From: Candidatus Poribacteria bacterium
GTDB lineage: Bacteria; Poribacteria; WGA-4E; WGA-3G
Assembly (NCBI GenBank): GCA_964291315.2
Contig: OZ219753.1
Span: 3,072,001 to 3,136,000 of the forward strand
DNA length: 64,000 nt
Reading direction: 5' to 3'
This document shows positions 1 through 21,095 of the stretch, one piece after another. The position numbers and the translations under genes are program-made. Below the pieces are notes generated by a model that was not told where the DNA came from, ran no database searches, and saw nothing but the letters and a program-made list of their open reading frames with translations. Within the stretch, counting starts at the first letter, position 1. Each line of letters starts with the position of its first letter.

Positions 1-161
1 TTTTGCCAGCAGGCATCGTCGAGAACACCGTCAATAGTTGGCGGATGTTCGATTTTAACTGCCGGCAACGCCTTTTTCACAGTGCTGTCCGTTGCAGCCC
101 ACAGCTTTCCACACACAGTGAGGAAAAGAATGAAAGTGACGAATAGTTTTTTAGCTAGCAT
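1..161 (-). CDS. 5' part of a secreted CBM9-like/DUF5916-type protein (runs off the window)
   Basis: Manual translation from ATG at 161 (GGAGG upstream): MLAKKLFVTFILFLTVCGKLWAATDSTVKKALPAVKIEHPPTIDGVLDDACWQ. Signal peptide followed by a PxIDGxLDDxxW motif. Not in the ORF track. Confidence 0.7.
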   Translation of the reverse strand, partial: MLAKKLFVTFILFLTVCGKLWAATDSTVKKALPAVKIEHPPTIDGVLDDACWQ

Positions 162-624
162 TTATTCTAAAGACCTCCAGATGAAACAATTGAACGTTTT
201 AAGTGAACTCACGCAATACAGATAACGCGAGTTGTGAGTTTGATAGATACTGTAACGTGAGTTTGAAAAAAGATTTAGAGGATATCTTTCGTATTAACGC
301 GAGCTTGATACATATTAGGTTCATCTTAAGAAAAAGAAAAAAAAAGGTTTATGGTTATGGCAGAAGGGTTGCTAAATACAAAACAAAGAGTATCAGGCCG
401 CTTCAGATGTGTGAGCGCCTCGGCATTCATTAGCAAGGGCGCGCACTTTTCTCTGTCAGGCAACGAAATCATCGACTGCATGCTGCGATGAGGTATCAAA
501 AATATTATCCCGCGACGGAGCAGCGATCATACCATTACTGGCAAATCTCTGACTAGACGCAGGTTCTAGGTCCACCTGCAAGGATTACGTCTTCGCCCGT
601 AGCTTTTCCATCCGTCCCCTATCG

Positions 625-2169
625 CTAACCTTTGGACGAAACCGAGGTAACCCCAACAATGCCTTTCTGCATCAATTCGATCAGTAACGTATCGGAGTGT
701 TTAAGGGTGTTCCTTGGAACAGGGTGCCACAGACTTAATTGATTTATGACCTCTGCTTCTTCTGAGCAGATAGGGATACGTATTGTATACAGCAGGTCAT
801 CCGAAACAAAAAATGCCCCGGTTTGTCTGCCGCTTAGCGCGAGAAACAGAAGGCTTTCCGGTTCGAGCCTCAACTCGATTTGAGAAGTATACGGCGCGAT
901 CAACTGACGGTAGTCAGCATCTGCGAGTCCTTTGTAGACAGGACTGGCGGTGGTTCCTGTCTTTGCATACTGTAACCGGGGTCTCTTCTTTGTGAATCTT
1001 TGATGAAACCGGGTCCCAAAGGGAGATAACGTCGGCCTCGTTTCGTTTGTCGGGCTGTTAAGCACGCGTTCTACAAATTGTATGACCTGTTCCGTATAGC
1101 GCGCGTAACTAAATTTCGCCTTGACCCTCTCCCGCCCGCGTTGTCCTTGTTCTTCGCGGAGATGCCTGTTTTCAATCAAGGCTCTTATTGCACGTATGAC
1201 GGCTGGTGTGTCAATTCGAATGCCGTTTGTTGTCACCCATGTGTTTATGGAAAATCCGCCCTCAAGGTCTCGGATAGTGTCTTTTAATCCGCCCCATGCC
1301 GTGCCGATAACAGGCACTCCCGCACTCATCGCTTCGATCTGGGACAACCCGAAGTTTTCGTCGTGGTGGAGCGTGAGGTTTATGAAGGCATCAGACGCAT
1401 TGAAAACCTCGTTGAGTTCCTCGGAGCTTTGCCACCCGAGTATGATAACATCCTCTGAAATCTGTAATGACGCTATAAGGGCTTGGACTTTATCCTCTAA
1501 ATCCATCGGATGCATACGGAATTCAGAAAAAGGGACATCCTCAAAACGTCCCACGACGACCAACTTCACAGGGGTCCCCGAGTGTATGAGTTCAGCGACG
1601 GCCCTGAGTGTTGTGTGCAGATTCTTTTCAATGGTCACCCGCCCCGTGTAGACAAGGACAAAATCATCTGGCTTGACTCCCCAATCCTTTCGGAGTTTTT
1701 CGCGCGCTTCTCCGCTTTTTAAAGGGAAGTAAGTTTCAAGATTCACACCGAACGGAAGGTAGACCGCTTCCGGAGTGGGCTTATCTAGGTCAATAAACTC
1801 ATAATAGATGTCCCTATCGGCTGTGCTAGTAAACCATATCGCATCGCTCTGATATAGATAGGGCATAATATCTCGAAATTTGTTCGCGCCCCGGGGGAAT
1901 CCTCCGAGGGCTTGGAATATTGTTTTCCCTCTCCATCCATTTTCTTTTAGGAATTCAATATGCTTGCTATAGCTTGTGATGGCCAAATCCACATCTACCG
2001 CATTTTCGAGCGTCCATGATTCCATCTCTCTTACGCTGAAGGGCTCCCCTTCTGCTTTCAAGAGACGATACTCTTTTTCAAGAATCTGCTCTATCTGACT
2101 AAAAACAGTGTATAGACTGGAATCAGGCTCTTCCGTTGCGGCGTGTCGGGTCAATAGAATAGTTTTCAT
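625..2169 (-). CDS. GT4 (GT-B fold) glycosyltransferase with C-terminal extension, in the lanthipeptide cluster
   Basis: YTGRVTIEKN and ENFGLSQIEAMSAGVPVIGT (EX7E) motifs; same strand, directly downstream of the ABC genes. Confidence 0.88.
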   Translation of the reverse strand: MKTILLTRHAATEEPDSSLYTVFSQIEQILEKEYRLLKAEGEPFSVREMESWTLENAVDVDLAITSYSKHIEFLKENGWRGKTIFQALGGFPRGANKFRDIMPYLYQSDAIWFTSTADRDIYYEFIDLDKPTPEAVYLPFGVNLETYFPLKSGEAREKLRKDWGVKPDDFVLVYTGRVTIEKNLHTTLRAVAELIHSGTPVKLVVVGRFEDVPFSEFRMHPMDLEDKVQALIASLQISEDVIILGWQSSEELNEVFNASDAFINLTLHHDENFGLSQIEAMSAGVPVIGTAWGGLKDTIRDLEGGFSINTWVTTNGIRIDTPAVIRAIRALIENRHLREEQGQRGRERVKAKFSYARYTEQVIQFVERVLNSPTNETRPTLSPFGTRFHQRFTKKRPRLQYAKTGTTASPVYKGLADADYRQLIAPYTSQIELRLEPESLLFLALSGRQTGAFFVSDDLLYTIRIPICSEEAEVINQLSLWHPVPRNTLKHSDTLLIELMQKGIVGVTSVSSKG

Positions 2170-2276
2170 GTTCTGTTTCCTCTACGTTATATCTATCTCA
2201 CTTTATGGGTCCTGAAATACATCCGTTAGTTAAAAGAGAGTCCCTCTTAAAACCTACTTAGCGACATCTATTATTC

Positions 2277-4067
2277 TTAGGCGTACCACGCAGATTGAGC
2301 CCGCCACATCTCAGCATATATACCCTCGTTCGCGAGCAACTCCGCGTGGGTCCCGCTTTCAACAAGGGCTCCCTCGTCTAAAACCAGAATTCTGTCACAC
2401 AACCGGGCAACTCCGAGTCTATGTGAGATGACGAGGAGGGTCCGGGATTCTGCTTTCGTTAACAACTCTCGAATTATGTCAGCCTCGGCAACGGGGTCTA
2501 TGGACGCAGTGGGTTCATCAAAAACCATGAGTGGACTGTCTCGAAATAGCCCGCGTGCGACCGCTATGCGAAGCCACTCGCCGCCTGATATGTCACGACC
2601 TCCGAACTCGTTTCCAAGGTAGAGATCTAAATCCTGCGAAAAAGTCGACCCCGCTTTCAACAAGGCGCTTCGTATACCCGCGTCGTCTTGAATGCGCTTA
2701 ACATCAGAAAACGCCACATTGTCGCGGACCGGCAGCAGATATCTAACAAAATCTTGGAAAACCGCACTCGCCTCCACCGTTTTCTGAGCTGTGCCTGCAT
2801 CTATCTTCACGCTGCCACGGCTCGGCGGATACAATCCGAGCAGGATATTTGCCAAAGTCGTCTTCCCAGATCCATTTTTACCCACAAGCGCAATGCGCTC
2901 TCCAGGGCTGATTTCTGCGGTAATGTGCTTTAGTACATCCGTCCCAGTTTGAGGATACCGGAAGGAGATACCCTCCATTTGAAGACGTAGCGGCTCCGCG
3001 CTGCCGTGTGCCGAAATATTGCTATCAGGGTTCGAGTTAGAAATCGCCGGCTGCTCAACGTTATCGGGCTGTATGGAAAAGAGTATGGCGAGTTCACGTA
3101 AAATACCCACCTGTTCCGCGAGGCTTCCAAGGGAACGCACCATCGTGGAAAGAAAGCCTTGCAAACTCACCGCTGCATGAATCAATCCGGTAAAAATGCC
3201 GGCTGTCTCTTTTGGGTCTGCGCTCTGTGCAGCGTGTGCTGCAATGAAAAGGACCGCCGCATATCCAAATACTGTGGAGAATCCGGCAAGCACCTCCCAG
3301 CGCATTATCTTTTTTAGCGTGGCAAGCTCTAGATTGGCAACGGTTTGATAAGATTTTTCCCACTTTGCCAACAACCAACGTTGGAGCGTGAACAACCGAA
3401 TTTCCCCCGCGCTGGTGCGAGAGGCGAGAAGCTCTGCCCAAGTCTCTTGTATCCGCTGCGAACGAACAACCGACCGTTCATGATCGCGTCTCAGCGAGAT
3501 GACACGCGGTTGTGTCAGGGAAATAACGACAGTGGATAACAACAGGGCCGCAGCACACCAGATGCCACCGCCAATGATGAATACCGCCGCGAACAACCCA
3601 ACAAGCGTAGCAACGCAGTGAATGTTATCTAGCACACTACGCAACAAACGCACAATACGATCCCCGAAATCCCGATGAGCCCGAGACGAAACGTCATGAA
3701 ACTCAGCGTCAAAAAAATGGAGCATCGGGATTCGCGCCGCCTGTTTTAAAAGCCGCTGCTGAAAATAGAGTATGGCTCGATTTGAGAACCATAACTGGGT
3801 CGGATAATTCAAAACATCGGTTAAAATTTGACACCCCGACATCACAAGATACATACAGCACCAGAAGAAGACTCGCTCGCCATTTATCAGGGCATTCGTA
3901 AACCCTGCGACAATAATAGCAGCAAACGCAAAAAACGCGGCATTCACAAGCCGCAAGAACACAGTGACAAAAAGCTGAAAAGGGGCAACAACGACAAAAC
4001 GGAGCACAATTCCTAAAACAGCCCGCCGCGAAACGTGTTGTACCTCTAAGCTGCTCACTGATACCAC
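2277..4067 (-). CDS. ABC exporter (TMD+NBD), lanthipeptide transporter half 2
   Basis: GKNGSGKTT, ISGGEW, VFDEPT, SHRL; N-terminal TM helices; no C39 domain. Confidence 0.92.
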   Translation of the reverse strand: MVSVSSLEVQHVSRRAVLGIVLRFVVVAPFQLFVTVFLRLVNAAFFAFAAIIVAGFTNALINGERVFFWCCMYLVMSGCQILTDVLNYPTQLWFSNRAILYFQQRLLKQAARIPMLHFFDAEFHDVSSRAHRDFGDRIVRLLRSVLDNIHCVATLVGLFAAVFIIGGGIWCAAALLLSTVVISLTQPRVISLRRDHERSVVRSQRIQETWAELLASRTSAGEIRLFTLQRWLLAKWEKSYQTVANLELATLKKIMRWEVLAGFSTVFGYAAVLFIAAHAAQSADPKETAGIFTGLIHAAVSLQGFLSTMVRSLGSLAEQVGILRELAILFSIQPDNVEQPAISNSNPDSNISAHGSAEPLRLQMEGISFRYPQTGTDVLKHITAEISPGERIALVGKNGSGKTTLANILLGLYPPSRGSVKIDAGTAQKTVEASAVFQDFVRYLLPVRDNVAFSDVKRIQDDAGIRSALLKAGSTFSQDLDLYLGNEFGGRDISGGEWLRIAVARGLFRDSPLMVFDEPTASIDPVAEADIIRELLTKAESRTLLVISHRLGVARLCDRILVLDEGALVESGTHAELLANEGIYAEMWRAQSAWYA

Positions 4068-5818
4068 TCCCTTTGTTCATTGAACATCTGAGCGTACTTC
4101 CCGTTTTTATCCAGCAGTTCCCTGGGTGTCCCAATTTCCACCAGGGTCCCCTTCTCTAAAACCGCAATCCGATCTGCAAGACGGGTAGGGCCAAGGCGAT
4201 GCGTTATAAGCAATGCTGTTTTCCCCTCTACCAACGCCACAAAATGCTCAAATAGTGCAAGCTCTGCCAACGGATCGAGATTCGCAGTGGGCTCGTCAAA
4301 AATAAAAAGGGAGACCTCTTTTTTCAAGAGACTCCTCGCCAATGCCACACGTTGCCATTCACCGCCGGATATATCCACGCCCCCTAACTCAGGCCCCAGA
4401 AGTGTTTCTAAACACAAGTTTTCTGTAGAAAATCCAACTTGCGCTAACGCAGCCTGAATGTCAGGATCTTGATTAGCGTCCAGACTGAAGGTAACGTTCT
4501 CTCGCAGCGTGCTCGGATACCTCACCGGGTGTTGAAAAACAAAGGTACACGCATTTCGAATGTCATCGGCGGCCATGCCGACAGCGTCTACACCGTCTAT
4601 CACCACGCGCCCATCTGTCGGAGAACGGAGCCCCGCCAACATGTGTGCCAACGTTGTCTTTCCAGACCCGTTTTCGCCTACGATTGCAAGAATTTCACCG
4701 GGGTGGAGATGCATATGAATGCCGCAAACCGCATCTGTGTCAGCACCGGGATAACGGTAGGTAACGCCGTCTAAAACGATACCTTGCCGCAGCGGACAAG
4801 GATAGGAGACAGAATCAGTTGATGAGGCTTCGGACGAGGGGAGAGCCATCAGACGACGAAAGTCCTCGCCATACCCGATATGTTGTACAAAACTCCTCAC
4901 CGTAAACTGCGCGGAATTCATACCGGCGGTGATAGTCCGAAACGCTTGTAGCACTAAGGCCGCAAGTCCCGGTTCAATTCGTCCACTGGAGAGAGAGACT
5001 ATGAACAGAGAAGCCCCAAGTATGAGTGTGAAAAGAAGGACTGCAAGGCCCCCTTGATACGTATTTTGAAGTGAAACCCGTAACTCCCCGCTCATATAAT
5101 CGCTCAGTGTCTTCTGCCAGCGTCCGAGGAGGGTCTCACCGATACCCCATAGGCGAATTTCGGAGGCACTTTGCCGACGCGTTAATAGTTGAACATAGTA
5201 ATCAGAAAGCCGTTTTTGATCCGTGTTTTCCACTTCAAAGCGGCGTTCACGCTGCCCCCAATAACTATTGAGGTACCTCAGGAGCACAACCCCACAAGCG
5301 AGTACTACCGGTAGCCATAAAGATATCAACCCTAAAATAACTGCGCTTGTTACCAAGATCGGCACATATTCGAGAATCTCCAACGCATCTTCCATTAAAC
5401 GGGGGCCGCGCACGTCTGCACCAGCAACCACGCGATAGATGAGATCATGCGTCTGTTTATCATCAAAAGCCTCCAGAGACAGGTTGCCTATCTTTGTCAA
5501 GGCACGACGTTGCAAAGAAAAACCGGCCTTCACTCGTATCCGTTCACGCAAGAGGGGAAGCACAATGAAGATGAGCTGTTGCCCAACAAACACAACGCAG
5601 AGCAGAATCAACCACACAAACGCAGCATCTAATCCACCGTCTACCAGCTGGTTGACTGTGGCGCGCAACAGAAGTAGAGCCCCGGCCGCCAAACCCGCTT
5701 GGATAAGCACAAGCAATACCCAAACAACAACAATATCCGGTGCTGATCTGACAATTCTTGAAAAGAGCCACAATAAGTTTCGGTATGAGGAACGTTCAGT
5801 TTCTACTGCGGAGTGCAT
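4055..5818 (-). CDS. ABC exporter (TMD+NBD), lanthipeptide transporter half 1
   Basis: GENGSGKTT, ISGGEWQR, IFDEPT, THRL; overlaps both neighbouring genes. Confidence 0.92.
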   Translation of the reverse strand: MHSAVETERSSYRNLLWLFSRIVRSAPDIVVVWVLLVLIQAGLAAGALLLLRATVNQLVDGGLDAAFVWLILLCVVFVGQQLIFIVLPLLRERIRVKAGFSLQRRALTKIGNLSLEAFDDKQTHDLIYRVVAGADVRGPRLMEDALEILEYVPILVTSAVILGLISLWLPVVLACGVVLLRYLNSYWGQRERRFEVENTDQKRLSDYYVQLLTRRQSASEIRLWGIGETLLGRWQKTLSDYMSGELRVSLQNTYQGGLAVLLFTLILGASLFIVSLSSGRIEPGLAALVLQAFRTITAGMNSAQFTVRSFVQHIGYGEDFRRLMALPSSEASSTDSVSYPCPLRQGIVLDGVTYRYPGADTDAVCGIHMHLHPGEILAIVGENGSGKTTLAHMLAGLRSPTDGRVVIDGVDAVGMAADDIRNACTFVFQHPVRYPSTLRENVTFSLDANQDPDIQAALAQVGFSTENLCLETLLGPELGGVDISGGEWQRVALARSLLKKEVSLFIFDEPTANLDPLAELALFEHFVALVEGKTALLITHRLGPTRLADRIAVLEKGTLVEIGTPRELLDKNGKYAQMFNEQREWYQ

Positions 5819-8511
5819 AGCAGGTCATCGAGCAAAAAATTGAAATTTTTGAATCTCTTTTCTCGGTTTGCTAGCCGAGCCAGAAACATCGCAATCCCCG
5901 CGGAGCCGCTCCCAAAATCGTTGGAAATCCGCAAAAGCTGTTCCCCCGGGAAAGCAATACCGTCCGGATTCTCTATTTGAAACTCAAGGATCCCTTTCGT
6001 AATTTTGAGTGCAGTTTCTATGCATTTGGTATCACCGGTAAAATCCCAAAGATCCAACTGTAGATTTCCAAGCCCGGCAAGTCCCGTAAATAAGGTGGGA
6101 AACGCAGTGAGATCACGAGCAGTGTCCGGCATCAAAGCATCCAACATCTCCTTATACTCGTCATTCTTGAAAACAGACCAGTAACGAACGAGCGCCGTAC
6201 AAACGCCTGCCGATCCGTCTGACCAGTAATGCGAAGCGACATTCTTGTGCATAGAAGGTGGTGACTCGGCGGCAACGCGTCGGATTTGAAATCCCTGTCT
6301 TGTTTCTTCCACTTGTGCTAAATCGTAAGATAACGCTCTTCGCCCGGCTTCTTCAAATCGGAGCTCTCCACTCGCCAATCTTAAGTAAAGGAAATAGAGT
6401 GCTATTCCTGATTGTCCCCTTGCATAGCCACACCAAATGTTTCCCTCCGTGTCTGGCCAGTAGTAACCCTCTTCTGATTCTGACTTTGTGTGGATTAACC
6501 GATCTCCCACTTGAACCGCCTGCTCCAACCAATATTCATCCTGTGTCTCTTTATGGAAATAGAGGCAAGCCAAACCGAAACCGGCAGCACCGTGGTAAAT
6601 GTCGGGAAGTTCCCAGAGCAACGGGTGCTCCGCTGCAGCTTTCATCAATTGCAACGCTATCTTTTGCTGTCCTAGCTTCCAAAACACCCATGCTATTCCG
6701 GACAGCCCCAGGTAGAGCCCCGGCGGATATTTGTCATTTGAAATCTCTTGTGATAGCATCCACGTTATTACTTTCTCTGAAACTTTACCCTCCAGAGACA
6801 ACAGGGCATAAGCAACACCTGCTGCGCCATGGGCGACGCTTAATGGATTCGTCCTGAAAACAGACGGATCCGCAGGAAAGAGGCAATCCGTTCTGTTAAA
6901 ACTCATATGAGACGTGATATAGTTCACTGTCTTATCGACAGTATCCATCAAACACATATCGCTTACCCTCGCCTTATCTGTATCCAATTGGGTGTGTGTA
7001 TCAAGCGACATGTTATTTAGTCGGTTTAAGATTTCATCTACTGACGGGCGCACATTTTCTTCCGCATCCATGCACTCAAGTATAAGTTCCTTCATACGAC
7101 GCGGAAGGGATCCAGCGTTTTCCGCACTCGCTAGGAAGCCATGTGTTGCTGTAGGCTTTATATTTAGTAAAGAGGTCACGGGGCAAATTAAACTGAACAT
7201 GATCCGGCCCAACCCGTATATGTCGTCCGAGGGGGACTGCACCCCTTCTGAGGGTCTAAACCCCGGTGTTCCAAACGTCGTGTATGGTGCATCAACGCCG
7301 ACCTCCCAAGCCCCCTCCAAGTCAATAAGTTGCAACGTTTCATCGTTTTGATGGAGGATGATATTTCCAGGCGAAGTATCATTAATAACGATGTTATGCT
7401 CATGTACAATTTTTAAGGCATGGGTAAGATTTGCGAAGATCTTATAGAGTCCCTCTACATAAATGTTCCCGTCTTTTTCGTCACTTCCAAGTGTCTCATT
7501 TCTACCTTGAGAAACGAGATCAAAGAGGTTGCTACCTTCAAGAAACTCCTCAACGAGGAATAGATGCTCCCAATCCTGAAAAAGATCCAAGGGCTCTGGT
7601 GTAACACCCGTTCCACTTAACTTGCTTAACAGACGATGCTCTTTTCTTAACCTCTCCACCGCGTCCAACCCGTCGGGGCCAATGTTCGTGTGGGGGCGTG
7701 CCTCTTTGATAACCACATGCTGCCCCGTATCCATGTCCACAGCTTTATAAACACCGCCCGTGAGAGAATAGTGCAGCGATCCTTCAATAAGGTATTTACC
7801 ATCCTTCAAAGAAAGCGCGTCCAGATCAGAAGAGTCATCTACTTCATTATTTTCATCTGAATCAAAAGGATCGGACATCCAAGGTGGGAGATCGAAAAAT
7901 GGAGACCTGCCATCCGTCACGAGCGCTCCATTAGGATCTTGAAGAAAATTTTCAACCTGCCCAAATATTGATATTTTGGGGACACCAATAAAGGCACCGT
8001 AACGATAATGCACTACTTCAGAGGTTTTATACCGCTTGTCTGATAAAATGTAAGGTCCCTTCATATCAGCGAGCTGCTCACATAAATCATCTGCAACCCT
8101 GTGGAAATGTTGAACATCTGACGGATAAATCGTTAAAAACTTTCCGCCAGATTCTCTGGCCCCTCCTTTATCCATTATTATGCTGAACACGAAAGGGTCT
8201 GCCAGAAATTTGAAAGCGACTTCCTGCCGAACGCAAATGTCGGTACATCTCTCAAGTATCTGCTTACAATTATCGGGGATCGCGGAAATGTGAATCTTCC
8301 AACCTTGTCTCAACGATTCATGGCTTCGAGGGAAAGTGTGCGTCCAAATGCCGTCTTGGCGGAGGTTCCATGAGATCGGCAACCTCTCGCGGACGATCTG
8401 CAGAAAATCCGGAGAAGGAACATATCGAGAAAAGGGCTCATACCAGTCTGAAGGTATAAGGCTATGAAAAGGGTATAGATTACGTCCGAAGTTTGGATCT
8501 GTTATGAGCAT
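5803..8511 (-). CDS. lanKC: Class III lanthipeptide synthetase (lyase-kinase-cyclase)
   Basis: Lyase motifs QGWKIHIS, GKFLTIYP, HYRYGAF; kinase motifs VVIKEAR, LIDLE, GTPGF. The LanC-like domain has YWSDGSAG and TLFTGLAG where Zn-binding WCHG/CHG would be expected. Confidence 0.93.
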   Translation of the reverse strand: MLITDPNFGRNLYPFHSLIPSDWYEPFSRYVPSPDFLQIVRERLPISWNLRQDGIWTHTFPRSHESLRQGWKIHISAIPDNCKQILERCTDICVRQEVAFKFLADPFVFSIIMDKGGARESGGKFLTIYPSDVQHFHRVADDLCEQLADMKGPYILSDKRYKTSEVVHYRYGAFIGVPKISIFGQVENFLQDPNGALVTDGRSPFFDLPPWMSDPFDSDENNEVDDSSDLDALSLKDGKYLIEGSLHYSLTGGVYKAVDMDTGQHVVIKEARPHTNIGPDGLDAVERLRKEHRLLSKLSGTGVTPEPLDLFQDWEHLFLVEEFLEGSNLFDLVSQGRNETLGSDEKDGNIYVEGLYKIFANLTHALKIVHEHNIVINDTSPGNIILHQNDETLQLIDLEGAWEVGVDAPYTTFGTPGFRPSEGVQSPSDDIYGLGRIMFSLICPVTSLLNIKPTATHGFLASAENAGSLPRRMKELILECMDAEENVRPSVDEILNRLNNMSLDTHTQLDTDKARVSDMCLMDTVDKTVNYITSHMSFNRTDCLFPADPSVFRTNPLSVAHGAAGVAYALLSLEGKVSEKVITWMLSQEISNDKYPPGLYLGLSGIAWVFWKLGQQKIALQLMKAAAEHPLLWELPDIYHGAAGFGLACLYFHKETQDEYWLEQAVQVGDRLIHTKSESEEGYYWPDTEGNIWCGYARGQSGIALYFLYLRLASGELRFEEAGRRALSYDLAQVEETRQGFQIRRVAAESPPSMHKNVASHYWSDGSAGVCTALVRYWSVFKNDEYKEMLDALMPDTARDLTAFPTLFTGLAGLGNLQLDLWDFTGDTKCIETALKITKGILEFQIENPDGIAFPGEQLLRISNDFGSGSAGIAMFLARLANREKRFKNFNFLLDDLLCTPQ

Positions 8512-8630
8512 AAAATTATCCCAAATGAGTGAGGCCAGCCCTGCAGTCTGTGCCTGTCATTACTTAAAACTGTCATCTGTGAACCAGACGCTGTCATCAC
8601 AGATCCAGCCCACAGACAAAAGAAAATAGG

Positions 8631-8744
8631 CTAAGTGCAATTGTTTGTGCAACTAGAAGCCACGCAAGAACTTGCAGACACAGTCATTGAAGACGTACTC
8701 AAGTTCAAGACGGGCATCTGTTGTAATGCTAAAACGCGCTTCAT
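8631..8744 (-). CDS. lanA: Lanthipeptide precursor A (37 aa) MKRVLALQQMPVLNLSTSSMTVSASSCVASSCTNNCT
   Basis: AAGGAG RBS 7 nt before ATG 8744; class III-type leader VLALQ; Ser/Thr/Cys-rich core; directly upstream of lanKC. Confidence 0.9.
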   Translation of the reverse strand: MKRVLALQQMPVLNLSTSSMTVSASSCVASSCTNNCT

Positions 8745-8824
8745 AAGAAAACTCCTTGTTTCTATGTTAGCTGTGAACCAGACGCTGTCATCACAGATCC
8801 GGCTCACAGACAAAAGAAAACGGG

Positions 8825-8938
8825 TTAATTGCAATTGTTTGTGCAACTGTAAGAATGGCAAGAAGAATAAGACTGAATCGTTGGAGACGCACCCAAGCGC
8901 AGGGCGGGCATCCGTTGTAGCGCTAAAACGCGCTTCAT
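8825..8938 (-). CDS. lanA: Lanthipeptide precursor B (37 aa) MKRVLALQRMPALRLGASPTIQSYSSCHSYSCTNNCN
   Basis: Manual translation; paralog of precursor A with identical length and Cys spacing. No clear SD. Absent from the ORF track. Confidence 0.85.
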   Translation of the reverse strand: MKRVLALQRMPALRLGASPTIQSYSSCHSYSCTNNCN

Positions 8939-9076
8939 AAGAAAAATATAGTGAGCAATTTACCTAAGAAGGCAAAAAGAGAAAGTACCTTGCCTCCTGT
9001 GGCAATCCTCTGGTTATTAGATGGTTAACACTGCTATGCTACCGTCATGGCAACACAGCGTGCATAGGTGCAGAAA

Positions 9077-9330
9077 TCACCTTTGGCGCACATCACAGAA
9101 AAGCTCGATCTCGGTACACATCCGAAACATCCAAGGGAAAACCGTCCCCTTTTTTCGGTGATGTATCGTTTCCAAGACCGCATCAAGCACCTGACTGTCG
9201 CTTTTCTCATGGAGTTCTTTCCATTCGGGACGTTCCGCCCGGTCGGAAAAGGTCGGGCAGGTGACACTGAAACGTTCACCAATCTCATCATACCGAACCT
9301 ATTGAAACATAAACTGACATTGTAAAAAAC
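9077..9330 (-). pseudogene. Possible decayed small HTH protein
   Basis: Reads ..FMFQ*VRYDEIGERFSVTCPTFSDRAERPEWKELHE.. with in-frame TAG at 9299-9301; HTH-like pattern. Confidence 0.3.
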
Positions 9331-9539
9331 GACCATATTAACACTGTGCATTGAAATATTTTCCGTGTAAAGCCAAATTATACCGGAAAGGCATCTTTTC
9401 GTAAAGAAAAAAGGTGATTTCCATTCAATACATTATAATTATACACTCTTTCGAGCCTTATGTCAAGAAAAAATTAGATCGTTCGGTAGAGCTACTCGAT
9501 TGTCGCGTATAGTCTTTTGACAAAAATAAAGACCCTGCC

Positions 9540-9643
9540 CCCAACTCCGCCTGGGTAAACACAAGCAATACCCAAACAACAATATCCGGGGCCGATCTGA
9601 AAACTCTTGAAAAGAGCCATCAGATTTTACTGCGGCGTGCATA
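9540..9643 (-). pseudogene. Remnant of the 5' end of the ABC gene at 4055-5818
   Basis: cacaagcaatacccaaacaacaatatccgg..gatctga..cttgaaaagagcca..tactgcgg.gtgcata matches about 5690-5819 with an internal deletion. Confidence 0.8.
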
Positions 9644-9797
9644 AAACGTTTCTGTATGTTTGAGAGAAGCGTGTTTGTGGCAACGGTGTGCACGTTTTAA
9701 AGGCGATAGTGCTGTAAAACCGTCGTCTATGCGCCACAGTGCCTTTGCCCGATTTTATCTCTCAAACGGATGTGCAGCAGTGTGTCCGTGAGGCGAC

Positions 9798-10220
9798 TTA
9801 TGGTGCAGACGGCTCCAACCGTTTTGCGATGCTAAGGAATAAGGTAGGGGCTAGCTGTCCGACTACCTCGATTCCTTTTTCATTTCGGGCATGTGCGATG
9901 TCCAAGGACACAGTGCTTTCCTGCAAGCTCAGCGAAACGCGATGTGTGCCGATGTGTCGCGTGGTTCCTGCAGCCTGTTCGGTTAGCCACGGTGTCGCGG
10001 CCGCTATTGCTTCAACGAAGGGACCGATTTTGATTTGAAGTAAGGTAGTCGGCTGTGCATCTATCAAGCCGAGTTGTGCCTGCCAATCCTCTGTATCTGT
10101 GTGCGTTTCGTTTAACACCTGGTCCACCATTTTTTGGAATTGCTGCTGAGAAAACGTTAGCAGAAAGAAATCGTTGATGTTTCCATAATAGAGGTGGCCG
10201 GGAATCGAGTCTGTATTCAT
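9798..10220 (-). CDS. Hypothetical protein (start uncertain; ORF extends to 10376)
   Basis: Protein-like composition from MNTDSIPGH onward; no motif recognised. Confidence 0.5.
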   Translation of the reverse strand: MNTDSIPGHLYYGNINDFFLLTFSQQQFQKMVDQVLNETHTDTEDWQAQLGLIDAQPTTLLQIKIGPFVEAIAAATPWLTEQAAGTTRHIGTHRVSLSLQESTVSLDIAHARNEKGIEVVGQLAPTLFLSIAKRLEPSAP

Positions 10221-10558
10221 AGTTATGCCTTTATAATCTGCTTGTTGTCTGTGTTCGGGCATAGCGGTTTTTTTTTCAAGAGCAAGTGAGCTATCTCGTG
10301 CAGAATCGCAGGTTGTTCGGGCAGCCCACAAACAGCGCGAAGCGGGGCATGCTTTGAGATAAAAGTGTATAAACATTTAAATAATTTTCCACATTACTAT
10401 AGTATATTTCTAAAACATAAACTTTTTCGCATACCTTATAGATACTTAAAACCGGCTAAAGGGTAGTGAAAAATCTAAGGTTTCACAATCGCCTCAGTGT
10501 TTCTATGGAAATCAATATTTCAAGCCGCCTGCTCATCTCGCTCCTCATTTCTTTTTAT

Positions 10559-10643
10559 AAAAGGGAAACCCTCTTAAAACCTACTTAGAGACACCTATTT
10601 TTAGGCGTACGACACGAATTAAGCACACCACATCTCAGCATAC
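10559..10643 (-). pseudogene. Remnant of the 3' end and trailer of the ABC gene at 2277-4067
   Basis: ccctcttaaaacctacttag.gaca.cta..ttaggcgtac..ccacatctcagcata matches 2242-2318; reads YAEMWCA*FVSYA* versus YAEMWRAQSAWYA*. Confidence 0.8.
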
Positions 10644-11351
10644 GTGCCCAGAGCCTGTCAGTTGTAGCATAGACTGTCAGTCTGTGCAGTGTTGTAGCAT
10701 ATGCTGTTGGTTTCCTGTGCCACTTCGGTACTTCTCACCCAACCTGTTAGGCTACCTAAGAACCCTCTTTATCCAAAGATGAGCCAAATAATTATCAAAC
10801 TCGCGTTAAGACCCCTCATGAAACAGCGTCAATACCGCTCTCTTCCGAAAAATAGTGGACTTGATGACTGCACGTCCCACAAGCAGTGAACGAGTATAGA
10901 GCGAACACATTTCCTTGTGATCGCTCAAGCAGGATATCCCGTTCGCCAACCATAGAAACAGGCTTGTGCCACAGTTTTCTCCAAGCCTGTGTTGTTGCCT
11001 TAAAGGGGATCTGTTTTGGAATAAATTGCTTACTGTATATTAAGTGTAAGGGGGGGGTTAGGAAGCGATAAAAAGCAAGACGAACGAACAGCAGCGCAGA
11101 TAGGATCCACACCGCACAAGGCAAATATTGCCACAGAACCTGACGTTCCGAGTAAGGGCTTAACCGCTAAAGCTTTCAGGCATTTCATGAGTAGATACAT
11201 CAATACCGATAGGCTTAACAGAACCTATCAATGTTACCTTAGGAATTACTTTCTTTCATACTTTCTATTTTAATTATACATTACACTATCAAGTTATGTC
11301 AAGAACTTTTTTCACCTATCCAGAGCCATTCAATCCTCGTTCATATTTTTT

Positions 11352-11558
11352 TCATGATATTGAGAGCTCTGCATGGGTTCGCTGCGAAGCTAGGTGCGTA
11401 GGGTAGAGTGTGGGGTGCGTCTCCTCCGCAGGGATCTCTTTTAACACCGTTCCTTGAAACCGACGGCGATCCCACTCCGCATAAAGCCAAAACGCGGCAA
11501 ACATCAGGAGGGTCAAAAGGATCGGGACAACTATCCCTTTTAGGTTCGTTATTTTTAC
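11352..11558 (-). pseudogene. Truncated membrane-anchored paralog of the 16081/29711 family
   Basis: AAGGAG then a non-start GTA; reads VKITNLKGIVVPILLTLLMFAAFWLYAEWDRRRFQG.. and stops early. Confidence 0.65.
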
Positions 11559-11603
11559 TTTACGTTTCTCCTTTTTACGTTAATCAGAATGAATTGAAGA
11601 CAC

Positions 11604-12500
11604 TCATTTATCTCCCGGTTTCATGTTAAAGACAACTTTTTCGGTCTCAAGTATCCCTTGCTGCTCGAAAATTTTTGCAGTGAATTTCATTTGTTTCAGG
11701 ACACTTTCAAAATTGGCAATTTCTTTGGCATGCTTTTCAGGGTTAATGTCTTTCAACATCTGCGTTTGTAATTCACAATATTGAATCATCTCTAGAATCG
11801 TGACCTCCTTCTGAAGTGAAAAGCGGAAGAAGAGGGCTTTCCATTCTTCCGTGCGCGGGTGTCCGTGAAATGCAAGTGTAGCAAACGCATCAAGTTCCGT
11901 GCGTGCGGCATCTACATCATGCGGGAGGCGTTCATGAAAGTTCACGTAATGTTGGTGGGCGGTTGTTTCCGATGCCGCTGGGGAGGTCCCCCTTTCTGAT
12001 GTGCCTGCTTTTCCGTCAGAATCTGTGGATTTCGGTGCTCGAAGTGGATCGTCCCCCGCTGATGTGAGGGTTTCAGCGTGTTTGAGGGCTTCTCGGTGGT
12101 ATTGTATCGGCACTGCATGTTTATCGGCATCAATCGCTGTCAGCATCCGGATTTCGAGTTCATGGATCCGTTGGATGTCCGAGGGATGCTCTGTCCCGTC
12201 TCGCAGGACTCGGAAGTAGAGCGGGATCCATTCCTCAACGAGGGTATGTCCGTCAAACAGAGTGGGGGCAACCCTCTGGAGCTCTGTGCGTGCGGCATCC
12301 GCATCCGTTTTGAGGAGTTGATGAAATGTTCTCAGTTCTGCTGTCCAAGGGGAGGGATTGACTTCCAGGGTAGCCCCTTTCTGTGCATATACAGACAGGA
12401 GCCCGATACAGCAAAACAGGAGTGTGTATAAGAGTGACGTTTTCAGCCGTCTTCCGTTTTCAAAGACGGCTAACGTCTGCGCGTGAATAAAGGTCAACAT
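11604..12500 (-). CDS. Exported helical protein with an internal duplicated domain; paralog of 28817
   Basis: GGAGG RBS; hydrophobic N-terminal segment; shares HELEIRMLTAIDA with 28817..29674. Confidence 0.85.
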   Translation of the reverse strand: MLTFIHAQTLAVFENGRRLKTSLLYTLLFCCIGLLSVYAQKGATLEVNPSPWTAELRTFHQLLKTDADAARTELQRVAPTLFDGHTLVEEWIPLYFRVLRDGTEHPSDIQRIHELEIRMLTAIDADKHAVPIQYHREALKHAETLTSAGDDPLRAPKSTDSDGKAGTSERGTSPAASETTAHQHYVNFHERLPHDVDAARTELDAFATLAFHGHPRTEEWKALFFRFSLQKEVTILEMIQYCELQTQMLKDINPEKHAKEIANFESVLKQMKFTAKIFEQQGILETEKVVFNMKPGDK

Positions 12501-12827
12501 CTATAACCTCCAAAAATTTTTAACAGTCTAAGTTTTATTCTATATTTATCGCCGGAGAGCTTTCGGACGGCAAAAAGGCTCGGCGTTTTGTCGTCTCTGC
12601 AATCCTCTATCTATTTATCGTACATCCATTTGACGCGGCAATAAGACCGCGGCCAGTGTCCGTTTCCAGCAATTAAAATTAAAAAATATCCCCGTCCTAG
12701 CGATGCAGGACCTCCCGGAGCGGAAACGCTTACATCTGAACATATTCTTTTCTATTCCGTTTGTTGCATGTGATGTGTCTCTGTTTTTCTCTGTATTCAT
12801 GGCATTTTGGTGCCTGGGATTTCTCCG

Positions 12828-13952
12828 TTATTGACTCGGCTGTTTCAACTCACGATAGGGGCGTAACTTGCCAGCGTCGTAGTCAAAAACGAGGGTGTCT
12901 TCGGGAACGTCTAATTGGAATTGGTTAGAGATATCAACATTGACTTCAAAAGAGACGGCTTGAAGGGTCGTCTTCCCAATGAGCTCGCCTTTCTGATGAG
13001 TGGTTTGCTCAATGTTTTCCGGGAACCAGACACCCGGTAGATATTCTCTATAGTGTATATGGCGCTCCGTAATATAGTGATCCCCCTTTTTGAAAGGGAG
13101 CGACTCGATCGCCTCCTGAGACTCGAGGATTTCTTGTAGTTTCACCAAGCGGAAACCTCTCTCTGCGGAGATCCAGAGTTTTAGACTTTTTACATGTGGA
13201 TGCTTTATACGAACGAGGTATGTCTCTTCACCGTTGAGCATTTCTGTTTGCAGGGGTCCGGTTTCATTATCTTCAAGGACTTTCCAGAGAGGCGTCAGGA
13301 GGTAGCTGCTTGGGGTTGCCGATCCGTAGGTCATCCAGTATCTCGGATCTAAATGTGCGTGTATCACACATTCCGGGCCGACCGTATACGCAAGGTGCGT
13401 CTCATAAAAAGCGAAGTATTCCTCTGTATAGTAGATGTAATGGCTGGCACCCGTTAGATTATCAATCATTTTGGAATAGCTCCCTTCGTCTACTTCAATG
13501 CGAAAACCGGCAGAGAAGTGGATACCTCTTTCTTTAAGCGCTTGTCTGACCGGAGGAGGCAGTTCCGGAGCCGCTGTGTTGAGACGTTCGAAGTCGGTGG
13601 GTGAGATATCTACACTAAAGAGTTCAACCTTGCGTTCAGAGACCTCCCATTGTCTTTCTCCATCATAAATCTCCGATAAAATCCTGCTGTTGGAAGAGTC
13701 GACTCTGACTTGTGCGTCTTCAAAGGTTGCACCATCAAAAGCGAAATCGTATTCTCGTTTCTCTTCTATCGCTCCGAGAGCGTGGTTATAGAGAAACGTG
13801 CCGCGTCCAGAAGTTGCTGCGGCATCAAAATGCTTGATGCCTGCGATGAGCGTTTGTAAGTCAAGATTCGGTGCTGCCGCTGCAATAGATATATGGAACG
13901 TTCCTATCAAGCAGAGCCGCAAAAGAAATGAGAGGAAGACTCTTTTTTTCAT
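12828..13952 (-). CDS. Secreted LolA/RseB-like beta-rich protein (paralog 1)
   Basis: AAGGAG before ATG 13952; signal peptide; motifs DPRYW, KLWISAERGF, GVWFP. Confidence 0.7.
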   Translation of the reverse strand: MKKRVFLSFLLRLCLIGTFHISIAAAAPNLDLQTLIAGIKHFDAAATSGRGTFLYNHALGAIEEKREYDFAFDGATFEDAQVRVDSSNSRILSEIYDGERQWEVSERKVELFSVDISPTDFERLNTAAPELPPPVRQALKERGIHFSAGFRIEVDEGSYSKMIDNLTGASHYIYYTEEYFAFYETHLAYTVGPECVIHAHLDPRYWMTYGSATPSSYLLTPLWKVLEDNETGPLQTEMLNGEETYLVRIKHPHVKSLKLWISAERGFRLVKLQEILESQEAIESLPFKKGDHYITERHIHYREYLPGVWFPENIEQTTHQKGELIGKTTLQAVSFEVNVDISNQFQLDVPEDTLVFDYDAGKLRPYRELKQPSQ

Positions 13953-13995
13953 TTCAAACTCCTTGTTGAAATGCGGGGGCACCTTGGAGACCACG

Positions 13996-14658
13996 TTATC
14001 TCACGCCTTCTATGATGCCCATGTGGTTTAGTTCTAAGAGGTCATAAAATTCTCCGCCGGGCTGAAAGGGAGAAAAATCACCGTGTGAATAGGTAATATA
14101 GTCAGTTCCCAAATCAAAGATAGTCCTTCGAAGTTTAAGGGTTTCCTCGAAGATGTCGTCTCTGAGGCGCCACAGTTCTGGCGGCCCCCCATTAGATGGA
14201 GCGAGTTCATCAACAAGTTCCAGCAGGTCCAGACGTTCTAGCAGCAGTTGTGGGATTTCGACCCGGATCTCTGCCAGTCTTTCAGGCCAGTCGGCTTCTT
14301 CCTCGGGTACTGCAGTGGGGTCACTGGCGAGATGAGGGCCCGTTGGAGTGTCTACATTTGTGGGGGGCAGTTCGTGCTGCGTGTATCTGTCTGTGGTCTC
14401 CGTTTCGGTGTCCTGTGAAAAATCGCTATGTCCCCCATCGACAGGCGTGTCGGCTTCCGCGGACGCGCTGTCGGCCCTTAAGGGGGGCGCTGGTGCCTTC
14501 GGTGTGCGGCGTGGCTGGAACTCTACGGCTTTATACACCATTATCACGGCTTGTGGTTGATTCGCGCGGTGAACCACAACACCGAGAAATATCACTGCAC
14601 AAAAGATTAATATTGAGCATATCCAGAAACGCTTTGATTTTAGTAGTACCATCATCAA
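13996..14658 (-). CDS. N-terminally anchored hypothetical protein
   Basis: One TM helix, Pro/acidic linker, helical C-terminal domain. Confidence 0.8.
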   Translation of the reverse strand: MMMVLLKSKRFWICSILIFCAVIFLGVVVHRANQPQAVIMVYKAVEFQPRRTPKAPAPPLRADSASAEADTPVDGGHSDFSQDTETETTDRYTQHELPPTNVDTPTGPHLASDPTAVPEEEADWPERLAEIRVEIPQLLLERLDLLELVDELAPSNGGPPELWRLRDDIFEETLKLRRTIFDLGTDYITYSHGDFSPFQPGGEFYDLLELNHMGIIEGVR

Positions 14659-14713
14659 CCCCTTTTAATTTTGTGTACCTGTTCTATCTGTGGGTGCCGC
14701 GCGGCAAAATGTT

Positions 14714-16081
14714 TCATTTCTGCGGAGCTCCCGACACCGCTAACACGCACGCGTAGTGTTGCCCCATCGCTATGCTTATCGGGCGACTCGGCTGAAGCGG
14801 GGTGACAGATAAAAGTTTACTTCTCTCTCCATTCTGCCTACGGATATCCTCTATGCCCAAAACGTGATGAATAGCGAGGAACCCTTTTTCGCTGACGACG
14901 CAAAGCTGATCGTCTGAAATTTGAAAGTCCGCGACAGGGCCCATGAACCCTTTTGCGTCGATATCTATTGTCTCACTTGAGGGCTCTTCGGGGATTTGCT
15001 GCATCTCTCCGAGTTCGCCAATGCGGTATGCAACTGTCGGCTTTCGGCGCGTGAGAGGCTTTTCACCTGTTGTCGCCAGATGCTCTCGCGAGTCCCTATC
15101 CACGTTGTAATTGAGTGTTCCCCCTACTCTTATTTTTACATCACTAATTCTACCGGCATCGTAAATCAGTATATCCCAGGTCGGGTCCCTGAGAGCCTCT
15201 ATTACTAGAAATTCTGACGAGGCGCGGACCCTTTCCGATCTGCTGCTCAGGAGTTGTAAAAACCCTCGTTGAAACAAGAGCGGGTCCCAAATACCTTCGG
15301 GGCTAAGATCTGATGAGGTAGAGAGGGGGATTTGTTCTATCTCCAGACCGCCTGTTTTGGGGCTTAGCAACCACCACCTTTTTTCTAATGCAACGGCTTT
15401 GACGAGTCGCGCATGTCCGAAATTTATGGAAAAAACGTAGAGGTGGTCATTCGCACTCATTACGTAGAGGTGAGATTCCCTAACATCAACGTCCGTGAGG
15501 GTGTTCTGATCTGGTAAATGGACGGTAGATTCAACCCTGGGGCGTGATGGCTGCGAAACATCGACAAGCTGAAGCGTATTTCTCGTTGTGACAACGAGAT
15601 GGTCTCCAGCAGAAAGTACCTTGCCTAGGTCATCCGCAAAAGCAAGCGATGCCAAATAAACCGGACGCTGCGGGATAGAAAGATCTATAACGTGCAAATG
15701 TCTTTCGGTCGTGAGATACGCGTGTTTTTCCGCCAGGACGACGGTGTTACCTGAATTGACACGAAAGGGCAGTCGGATAGAAGCAGCGAGGGTCGGATAT
15801 TCTGGATCCTCTGTCTCTACCACTGTGAAGAGGGTCTCTTTGGGGCTTGCGGAGGCAACCGGCATTGGGGGTTGAACATCCGCTTTCATGCTGCACCCAA
15901 GGTTCACAAGTGCCAAGAGCATTACACTCAGAAAAGCAAAAACGGTGGGGGGGGAAAACGTTTTCATCACGTCTTTTGCGGCATGCCCGTTTTTTGACAT
16001 CGTAGAATCACTACGGTTCAGGTAAAGGCCGAGGCCGACTATACAGACCAATGAAATGAAAATAGCAAAAATGGATATCAT
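14714..16081 (-). CDS. LVIVD-repeat (beta-propeller-like) exported protein, possible lipoprotein
   Basis: HLHVIDLSIPQRP and LQLVDVSQPSRP repeats; LVNLGC lipobox-like motif; TGATG overlap with the upstream gene. Confidence 0.75.
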   Translation of the reverse strand: MISIFAIFISLVCIVGLGLYLNRSDSTMSKNGHAAKDVMKTFSPPTVFAFLSVMLLALVNLGCSMKADVQPPMPVASASPKETLFTVVETEDPEYPTLAASIRLPFRVNSGNTVVLAEKHAYLTTERHLHVIDLSIPQRPVYLASLAFADDLGKVLSAGDHLVVTTRNTLQLVDVSQPSRPRVESTVHLPDQNTLTDVDVRESHLYVMSANDHLYVFSINFGHARLVKAVALEKRWWLLSPKTGGLEIEQIPLSTSSDLSPEGIWDPLLFQRGFLQLLSSRSERVRASSEFLVIEALRDPTWDILIYDAGRISDVKIRVGGTLNYNVDRDSREHLATTGEKPLTRRKPTVAYRIGELGEMQQIPEEPSSETIDIDAKGFMGPVADFQISDDQLCVVSEKGFLAIHHVLGIEDIRRQNGERSKLLSVTPLQPSRPISIAMGQHYACVLAVSGAPQK

Positions 16082-16836
16082 CAGTAACCACCTCCAATTT
16101 TGACGTTACTTCTGTAGAAAAATTCTTCCCCGGATTCTAGGGAATGTTGTTTGGCTTCTCGGAGCATCTCAAGATTCGCTTGGATTCCCACTACGGCACC
16201 GTCTCCGAATTGAGAGAATTGAGAGAAGAGTCTTATCTCTGCTTCCATGTATCTAATTGCCGTATCCACGGGTACGGGTCCCTTATTGTAGCTTCGGATG
16301 CTTTCAACGAGAATGTCAACATCGGGGGAATCACCGAATTGTTCGCGGAACGCATCGTCAAGCCGCTGGTAAGCATATTCGGGATTAGTGGAGAGATAAG
16401 AGTTGTAATCCTCGAATCCTGCCTTGACTCGCTCTATGTCATAAGGAACTTTAGGAAAATCTGCAGCGTTTTCATCAGGCCCCTCCGTTTTGTGGCTATC
16501 CGGTGCGTCTCCATATGTAATTGTTTTTTCGGTGAACGGCTGCGCTTCATCAAGGAACAAGTCTGCCTCCGCATCGGCTGTGGTGCTCTCTTTTTCCGGT
16601 GTAGGTGCCGCGGGGACTATAGCGGTTGCCTTCTGTGTGCTGCTGCCCTCGACAACTTCTCCGGAGCGGGGGTTTTTCTCAAGTTCTTCCGCCTGCAGTT
16701 CGTCGGGTCCGTGAGGACGAGTTGGCAGCGATCCCGTAAACTGTTTCATATCCCACTCGACGTAGAACCAAAGTCCTATACAAATCATAACAATCACACC
16801 ACCGACAAGGACGAACGGTTTCCTGAGTTTCATCAC
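16081..16836 (-). CDS. Membrane-anchored protein; paralog of 29711
   Basis: TM helix plus WDMKQFTGSLP; shared PEYAYQRLDDAFREQ(F/Y)GD.PDVDILVE. Confidence 0.85.
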   Translation of the reverse strand: MMKLRKPFVLVGGVIVMICIGLWFYVEWDMKQFTGSLPTRPHGPDELQAEELEKNPRSGEVVEGSSTQKATAIVPAAPTPEKESTTADAEADLFLDEAQPFTEKTITYGDAPDSHKTEGPDENAADFPKVPYDIERVKAGFEDYNSYLSTNPEYAYQRLDDAFREQFGDSPDVDILVESIRSYNKGPVPVDTAIRYMEAEIRLFSQFSQFGDGAVVGIQANLEMLREAKQHSLESGEEFFYRSNVKIGGGY

Positions 16837-16913
16837 TTACTCCTTCGATTGGGGCTCAACCTCATTTTTCCCTATGCGGATTTCGAGTTCGGAGACTCGT
16901 TTTACATATCCTA

Positions 16914-16955
16914 TTATTTAATACATACATGTCAGCTCAAAAAACTTAGATTTTT
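16914..16955 (-). promoter_or_regulatory. Repeated ECF-like promoter motif (variant)
   Basis: Minus strand AAAAATCTAAGT-TTTTTGAGCTGACAT-GTATGTATTA aligns without gaps to the 30542 copy. Confidence 0.5.
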
Positions 16956-17213
16956 CCGTTCGCGAGCCCGTGCTATCTAGTTATAACGTGAGTTTGATAA
17001 ATAACTCCCTATTTTCGTTGTATAAAGAGAACACCGTTTGGTCTAATTCCGGGGTATTGTATCACCCTTCGGCAAAATAGACAACTCTTTTCTTTTTATA
17101 CACTCATAATATATTGGAGTTATCAGCGTTTCGTCAGGAGCTCCTATTGACGTTTGGCATGAGTTTGAAAAGAGAGATCAAAACCATGAGATCAGAGGCT
17201 TTCGTGTGCGTAT

Positions 17214-17720: not shown

Positions 17721-17742
17721 GAGAACCCCTCCTTGTTGTAAG

Positions 17743-18552: not shown

Positions 18553-18659
18553 AAGTCAATCCTTTCTCGTATTTAGGTGCGGGTATTATCTTTGGCGCTC
18601 CTGAAAACCTATGAGCGGCTGTCCCGTTTCAAAAACGCCACTCTTTGCGTTATTGTCTC

Positions 18660-18688
18660 ATTATACACAAAAACACGTTTTGTGTCAA
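18660..18688 (-). promoter_or_regulatory. Consensus sigma70 promoter
   Basis: TTGACA-N17-TATAAT on the minus strand, upstream of 18552. Confidence 0.75.
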
Positions 18689-18739
18689 TCAAATCTACGG
18701 ATTTCCGTAGCGTTAAGGTGTTGAGTATCCTGAAAAACC

Positions 18740-19878: not shown

Positions 19879-19900
19879 TTTATTCCTCCTCTAGATACGA

Positions 19901-20026
19901 GACGAATCTCGCGTTCGTCCCTGCTATTTATATATATACACTTCATCCCTAAAAGTTTAGCTTTTTTTTCATATCTGTATAACTACAGGGTCGAGGTACA
20001 TGAAGACACTAACAATATTTATCTAA
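19901..20026 (-). repeat. About 125-bp intergenic repeat (second copy 24716-24846) containing the ECF-like promoter motif
   Basis: gacgaatctcgcgttcgtccctgctatttatatatatacacttcatccctaaaagtttag is identical in both copies. Confidence 0.9.
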
Positions 20027-21094: not shown

Positions 21095-21095
21095 G

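Follow-up and report, generated by a model that had tools for sequence, protein, structure and literature searches.

A stretch of 64,000 nucleotides from a Candidatus Poribacteria genome (assembly GCA_964291315.2, contig OZ219753.1, positions 3,072,001 to 3,136,000), called the window below, contains at positions 625–8938 a gene cluster that includes a class III lanthionine synthetase (LanKC) and ends in a gene for a family GT4 glycosyltransferase (GT). Reading of its open reading frames (ORFs) gives six intact genes, all in one orientation on the minus strand. An earlier note on this DNA had listed the genes in this one-strand order with no protease gene among them, and the coordinates given here and the domain searches agree with it. 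Pfam and NCBIfam detected no protease domain in the six genes or in the next four ORFs upstream, and these four ORFs returned zero matches to either collection. The genes and associated features are, in the direction of reading:

9438–9466, minus strand: candidate sigma-70 promoter, TTGACA-17-TATAAT (consensus match only)
8825–8938, minus strand: precursor B (LanA), 37 aa, MKRVLALQRMPALRLGASPTIQSYSSCHSYSCTNNCN; leader R-x-L-A-L-Q, core with SxxS and three Cys, end TNNCN
8771–8809, minus strand: hairpin after precursor B (folding against shuffles)
8631–8744, minus strand: precursor A (LanA), 37 aa, MKRVLALQQMPVLNLSTSSMTVSASSCVASSCTNNCT; leader R-x-L-A-L-Q, end TNNCT
8577–8615, minus strand: hairpin, second copy, downstream of precursor A (pattern match in the window)
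5803–8511, minus strand: LanKC, class III lanthionine synthetase (lyase-kinase-cyclase), 902 aa (Pfam, NCBIfam, alignment to 8sao)
4055–5818, minus strand: ABC1, half-transporter of an ATP-binding cassette (ABC) exporter with membrane and ATPase domains, 587 aa; ABC_membrane 33–291, ABC_tran 366–512
2277–4067, minus strand: ABC2, exporter half-transporter, 596 aa; ABC_tran 379–521
625–2169, minus strand: GT4 glycosyltransferase, whole gene, 514 aa
1057–2169, minus strand: catalytic GT-B part of the GT, residues 1–371 (Glycos_transf_1, structure model, Foldseek)
640–918, minus strand: C-terminal domain of the GT, residues ~418–510, with a predicted winged-helix fold like that of a RiPP recognition element (RRE; RiPP, a peptide that is ribosomally made and then modified post-translationally)

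The LanKC and ABC1 genes overlap by 16 nt and the ABC1 and ABC2 genes by 13 nt, and a gap of 107 nt separates ABC2 from the GT gene. A terminator-like site was looked for in this gap and none was found. Our best reading is that the six genes form one operon for a class III lanthipeptide.

LanKC has the three Pfam domains RamC_N (residues 39–223), Pkinase (252–496), and LANC_like (556–887). It scored 748.4 bits against the NCBIfam model for class III LanKC (NF038151), which has a cut-off of 575, and 568.1 bits against the class IV model (NF038150), under the cut-off of 650. Residues 50–878 align to the solved class III LanKC 8sao (E = 1.7e-70), and the cyclase domain contains the stretches YWSDGSAG and DFGSGSAG, which match the ligand-less motifs of that structure. 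The two would-be zinc-ligand positions are occupied by Ser and Gly-Ser, as in 8sao; we take zinc-binding cyclases to carry Cys and Cys-His there. The earlier assignment to class III without zinc ligands is therefore borne out by the domain set, the NF038151 score, and the structural alignment. The solved enzymes 8sao, 8sap, and 8sam share with LanKC a full-length alignment and the same Ser and Gly/Thr-Ser residues, but they are distant in sequence, and the window precursors have unusual cores with C-x4-C-x3-C at the extreme C terminus. Three other genomes (G036, G011, and G111) have open frames of 430–446 aa (L106 1252–2577, L008, and L105, respectively) that match only positions 24–390 of the LanKC model. 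The G036 frame contains the RamC_N lyase domain but lacks a cyclase; judged from their sequences, these partial frames may encode stand-alone lyase-like proteins.

Pfam matched Glycos_transf_1 (PF00534) to residues 156–348 of the GT (E = 1.4e-28). The predicted structure has a GT-B fold (pLDDT 89.9, pTM 0.89), and a Foldseek search with the model returned PimB' (3oka) at 1e-18 together with sucrose-phosphate synthase, MshA, and BshA, in a range of 1e-18 to 1e-16. The family GT4 is defined by an E-x7-E motif in the donor domain; among 25 family members, conservation is at least 90% at both E271 and E279. We count this conservation and the predicted GT-B fold in favor of a catalytically competent enzyme. 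The N-terminal half, which binds the acceptor in GT-B enzymes, has no match in Pfam.

The catalytic part is followed by a loop modeled at low confidence (residues 392–417) and a C-terminal domain for which pLDDT is mostly 86–96. The model of residues 418–510 runs from one helix through four short strands to three helices, of which the second has 3 residues, and a final strand. Searched against 1.84 billion proteins, a profile of this ~95-residue extension retrieved 67 representatives (E ≤ 0.001), and nearly all of them match at about residues 375–530 of proteins 505–570 aa long. When 12 matches were sampled, 7 had GT4 Pfam domains, 3 were short and possibly fragments, and 2 were spurious repeat proteins. 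The domain thus occurs almost only fused to the GT family of the window. An exhaustive structural search placed MibB 187–287 (Z = 6.8; 6.6 on repeat) and TbtB 252–358 (Z = 6.4; 6.5 on repeat) at the top. The best 50 structural matches included 15 RiPP enzymes or stand-alone RREs (MibB, TbtB, TigE, MccB, MadB, NisB, PqqD, ThcOx, PbtF, McbB, CteB, TbiB1, LynD, the lasso B1 protein 6jx3, and TglI). An RRE or a bound leader peptide is named outright in three of these entry titles; in the remaining entries the aligned region is presumably the peptide-binding RRE. The model therefore suggests an RRE-like winged-helix fold with a putative role in peptide docking. A search of the ESM Atlas with the domain gave nothing usable.

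A winged helix could instead bind DNA or mediate oligomerization, in which case the GT could still tailor the peptide, without docking of the RRE type. Many of the best 50 structural matches are indeed winged helices of the OmpR/PhoB, PriA, or NO66 type (Z = 3.6–6.1), and two NCBIfam regulator models matched weakly, each in one of six members at E = 0.04. However, RiPP proteins, aligned at what are presumably their peptide-binding regions, supply the top two matches and 15 of the 50 in all, and the strands that precede the helices fit the arrangement of an RRE. Moreover, the domain is never found apart from this RiPP-linked GT, except as short proteins, possibly fragments of genes. We consider a DNA-binding or oligomerization domain quite unlikely.

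Co-conservation of the GT with lanKC was the test by which the earlier note would have its proposal of a dedicated glycosyltransferase judged. We ran it on 176 genomes of the phylum. GT orthologs (E ≤ 1e-50) are present in seven genomes, all in one genus. LanKC is full-length in three genomes (G000, G006, and G162) and present as a contig-end fragment in a fourth (G012), and each of these four carries the GT downstream, separated from LanKC by zero to two genes. The GT follows LanKC directly in G006 (56% identity) and G012 (61%). The intervening genes are ABC1 and ABC2 in the window and those for a methyltransferase and a transporter of the major facilitator superfamily (MFS) in G162, where the GT is 36% identical. 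A metagenome scan with a profile of the four closer GT sequences returned four loci, three of them identical: L108–L110 (one locus found three times) has LanKC followed by the GT, and L111 has ABC2 followed by the GT. The GT is thus co-conserved with lanKC in the genomes and on the metagenome contigs. The G162 cluster (L098 1073–12428) contains, besides the methyltransferase (S-adenosylmethionine-dependent) and the MFS transporter, genes for a luciferase-like monooxygenase, a UDP-glucose/GDP-mannose dehydrogenase, a 307-aa protein of no family, and an extracytoplasmic function sigma factor.

The remaining three GT-bearing genomes (G033, G166, and G150) have no LanKC, and their GT genes lie inside lasso-peptide operons. 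Besides ABC exporters, these operons encode a B2 protease of the Transglut_core3 family, an Asn_synthase-type cyclase, and a B1 protein of the PqqD type, whose gene abuts that of the GT or overlaps it. The G033 operon (L099) also encodes a GT28-like protein and a PRMT-like methyltransferase; the other two operons are L100 (G166) and L101 (G150). As a control, we examined 80 loci around unrelated GT4 genes (at most 32% identity), kept from a scan with a whole-GT alignment whose patterns are generic GT4 motifs. LanKC, lasso cyclases, B2 proteases, and the GT's C-terminal domain were all absent from these 80 loci. In a FastTree phylogeny of 69 rows (62 family members of 480–600 aa plus seven locus sequences), one clade of 51 rows (support 100) contains the five GTs linked to LanKC, and a sister clade of 9 rows (support 90) contains the two linked to lasso genes. 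A profile of six GT sequences had no match in four named genomes, nor in 301 genomes from the family to which G177 (labeled Pyrinomonadaceae) belongs. The simplest explanation for an enzyme that accompanies two unrelated RiPP classes is that it tailors peptides.

The two precursor genes of the window lie in a 194-nt tandem duplication (8571–8751 and 8765–8945, 82% identical), and they are the only LALQ-leader precursors in the 4.4-Mb genome. Both leaders begin M-K-R-V-L-A-L-Q, as read from the sequence. In an alignment of 21 precursors, M1, R3, L5, A6, L7, and Q8 are invariant (leader M-x-R-x-L-A-L-Q); a hydrophobic motif of the L-x-L-Q type is the published recognition motif of class III. The first Ser of SxxS (S23) is at least 90% conserved in the same alignment, and most of the precursors have a C-terminal Cys or Cys pair. 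Each window core has three Cys at the extreme C terminus, spaced C-x4-C-x3-C, and neither precursor contains Trp. Ser-to-Cys spacing is usually 3; it is 0 or 5 in the window precursors and 6–8 in their relatives. Clusters of the G006 type have nine precursor genes each (L009 6665–8627 in G006; L108 2090–4248 in the metagenome). Mean pairwise identity of these precursors is 96% over the first 10 residues and the cores are hypervariable, so that on sequence grounds the arrays resemble a combinatorial library. The 18 distinct G006-type precursors have two Ser columns (17 and 14 sequences) and two Cys columns (17 and 14). All 18 have Asn-Asn at the C terminus, while Asn makes up 3.4% of the remainder of their cores, and three further metagenome precursors likewise end in NN. 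The lasso precursors that adjoin the GT end in IPNNG, NTNC, PPNC, and NHNC. We regard the conserved Asn as a sequence-based lead for a recognition or acceptor site, not as a finding.

Taken together, these data make it likely that the GT is a RiPP-tailoring glycosyltransferase and that the cluster makes a glycosylated class III lanthipeptide. The proposed pathway would begin with the two precursors, whose common leader is read directly from the sequence. From knowledge of the family, LanKC would phosphorylate core Ser and Thr residues, eliminate the phosphate, and close lanthionine or labionin rings onto the three Cys. After or before this step, the GT4 enzyme would dock on the peptide through its RRE-like domain and move a sugar onto it from a nucleotide sugar. 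Candidate acceptors are the Asn-Asn beside the last Cys, a Ser or Thr that escapes dehydration, and a Cys. The heterodimeric ABC exporter would then secrete the product, and a peptidase encoded elsewhere may remove the leader. With three Cys in each core, the peptide may be polycyclic, as the earlier note proposed.

Several points weigh against this interpretation. The GT gene is the last of the operon and lies beyond the 107-nt gap, and it could therefore have its own promoter. The closest solved GT4 enzymes act on sugars, lipids, and small molecules rather than peptides, as do most characterized members of the family. The seven genomic contexts all come from one genus and are therefore not independent. 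Precursors of the G162 type have no Asn at all, so Asn cannot be the universal acceptor. The similarity of the C-terminal domain to RREs is middling (Z ≤ 6.8); according to the guidance of the search tool, Z below 8 may reflect merely a common arrangement, and winged helices from oxygenases of the NO66 type and regulators of the OmpR type come close in score. Foldseek comparison of the domain model with the PDB gave no match at E ≤ 0.001, none of six members matched the PqqD family of Pfam even at E ≤ 10, no RRE model of NCBIfam matched, and hhalign against three lasso B1 proteins gave a probability of 0.3%. Because every Z is below 8 and generic winged helices lie close by, we describe the domain as RRE-like rather than as an RRE.

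The GT might leave the peptide alone and act on a cell-envelope or sugar acceptor, for example, in self-protection of the producer or in exopolysaccharide synthesis. Its closest solved relatives (PimB', sucrose-phosphate synthase, MshA, BshA, and WaaG) are enzymes of small molecules, lipids, or sugars, and the source annotations read "glycosyltransferase involved in cell wall biosynthesis." The terminal position of the gene past the gap, and in G162 the dehydrogenase gene two genes further downstream, fit such a role as well. Against such a role, the GT accompanies two unrelated RiPP classes, and its gene adjoins or overlaps that of lasso B1; a context of this kind occurs in 0 of the 80 generic GT4 loci. 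The family-specific C-terminal domain with its RRE-like predicted fold also argues for a peptide substrate, and the acceptor-binding half has no match in Pfam. We therefore regard an envelope or sugar acceptor as improbable and retain peptide tailoring as the preferred explanation.

A bolder proposal is that the GT is indifferent to RiPP class: the fused RRE-like domain would dock on class III lanthipeptide and lasso precursors alike, and the enzyme would glycosylate the C-terminal Asn-Asn (or Asn-Cys). If so, the G006-type GT would decorate a library of nine hypervariable lanthipeptides. We know of no precedent for N- or S-glycosylation of this kind by a retaining GT-B enzyme, and we hold this specific form of peptide tailoring to be a speculative possibility.

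Comparison with characterized systems sets the proposed product in context. NAI-112, from the apl cluster of Actinoplanes, is described in the available portions of two papers as the one known glycosylated class III lanthipeptide, with a deoxyhexose placed on N-1 of Trp by AplG after ring formation (PMC8341899, PMC11912497). The earlier note had named this compound as an example of the rare glycosylated class III products. Common to both systems is a class III LanKC pathway with one dedicated cluster glycosyltransferase. They differ in other respects: the acceptor there is Trp, whereas the window cores have none, and the producers are Actinomycetota there and Poribacteria here. A search of the window's genome found no Peptidase_M1 gene; M1 is the family to which we take the NAI-112 leader peptidase to belong. 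With no Trp in the window cores and no M1 gene found in the genome, the analogy is loose.

The class V lanthipeptide cacaoidin carries a Tyr-linked disaccharide, and its cluster encodes three glycosyltransferases of unproven role, including the GT4-family enzyme Cao24, according to the accessible part of its description (PMC8068269). It thus shares with the window a GT4-family enzyme encoded in a lanthipeptide cluster, with a glycosylated product in the case of cacaoidin. It differs in its class and in having three such enzymes, and, compared by description, the excerpted account mentions no fused C-terminal domain. Among lasso peptides, IgtG of the davasins glycosylates one Ser of the mature lasso iteratively, as assayed with microsomes, and has relatives in graspetide clusters; pseudomycoidin is a further known case of lasso glycosylation (both from the portion of PMC11912497 available). 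IgtG resembles the lasso-linked sister clade in that the latter may also perform lasso tailoring, but by description it is set apart from the window family, which is predicted to be a soluble GT-B enzyme of family GT4 with an RRE-like domain. Structure-based mining for RREs noted fusions of an RRE to a glycosyltransferase, which the excerpt available assigns to Pfam PF00535 (Glycos_transf_2) (PMC12710340). The window enzyme differs from the fusions so described, since it belongs to PF00534 (GT4) and its domain is unmatched by PqqD or other sequence models. A 2025 count, as given in the part of the source at hand, stood at two glycosylated lanthipeptides and two homologous lasso peptides, with few of their glycosyltransferases characterized (PMC11912497).

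In full-text literature, a coverage that most subscription journals fall outside, searches turned up neither an account of a GT4 family of this kind nor one of a comparable Poribacteria lanthipeptide cluster. New here are the GT family and its RRE-like domain, the presence of the family in lanthipeptide as well as lasso operons, and the Asn-Asn signature. If the proposed function is correct, the GT would represent a new family of tailoring enzymes, in which a GT4 enzyme is fused to a peptide-docking domain and is common to two RiPP classes. It would provide a handle for genome mining of glycosylated RiPPs and a candidate tool for leader-guided glycosylation of peptides, and the cluster would be the first concrete natural-product pathway of this type in uncultivated Poribacteria.

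Each precursor gene is followed by a hairpin. The region 8745–8835 folds at −32.2 kcal/mol (z = −4.37), and none of 200 shuffles folds as well; the hairpin pattern occurs twice in the window, where 0 matches are expected. Between the copies two bases differ, and reading of the sequence indicates that pairing is kept as G-U. Since they have no U-tail, the hairpins are probably elements of mRNA stability or processing. Long-range pairing between the hairpin region and the start of LanKC was also considered (inverted repeat 8494–8507/8594–8607) and rejected, as it was no better than shuffles (z = −1.55). No Rfam family matched in positions 1–12000 of the window. The candidate promoter matches the consensus at 12 of 12 positions and is the best of 18 promoter-like sites in positions 1–11000. 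It lies ~500 nt upstream of the first precursor gene, which would give the transcript a long untranslated leader (8939–9466).

Both ABC proteins carry ABC_tran, and the NHLP exporter model aligned with them only from about position 158–160 onward, which indicates that neither has the N-terminal peptidase part. Matches to Peptidase_S9 were considered as the leader peptidase and set aside: the open frames are merely 249–368 aa, and no candidate is named. A further ABC exporter of 578 aa (ABC_membrane and ABC_tran) is encoded at 25546–27282 on the minus strand, 17 kb from the cluster.

The cluster could instead be a silent or decaying remnant that yields no product. The distribution is patchy, with LanKC in 4 of the 176 genomes, and in L111, a relative from a metagenome, the GT is frameshifted and an ABC gene is fragmented. 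In the window, however, all six reading frames are intact and the catalytic motifs are conserved. The genes overlap as in a translationally coupled operon, a hairpin stands behind each precursor gene, and the GC content of the cluster (0.486) is close to that of the genome (0.479). We judge a remnant to be very improbable, and an active cluster for a glycosylated class III lanthipeptide remains our preferred explanation.

The genome of the window, from a bacterium of the sponge-symbiont type, is 4.4 Mb in 4 contigs and 95% complete. Four DNA sequencing runs, all of one study, contain the stretch, and no RNA run is listed for it. GT homologs of 50–78% identity come from metagenomes, and one of them is labeled "Candidatus Poribacteria bacterium." The GT of G006, a genome of this genus, belongs to a cluster at 90% identity that has a member with this label, which supports the Poribacteria-like lineage proposed from the sequence alone. 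Downstream of the GT, beyond a non-coding gap of 460 nt, a new gene with a signal-peptide-like N terminus starts at 3–161 on the minus strand, and we take the gap and this gene to mark the end of the cluster. The related locus L010 has a protein with weak matches to DUF5916 and CBM9. On the other side, the 192-aa ORF at 9798–10376 was considered as a counterpart of the sigma-like factor that adjoins related clusters, and it proved not to be one. It opens a run of fourteen consecutive minus-strand ORFs of 164–455 aa (9798–24417) with no match in Pfam or PHROG. Among 65 genomes of the genus, 30 encode homologs of the 455-aa ORF (14714–16081), frequently as several tandem copies, and the run looks, from its sequences, like a lineage-specific paralogous family.

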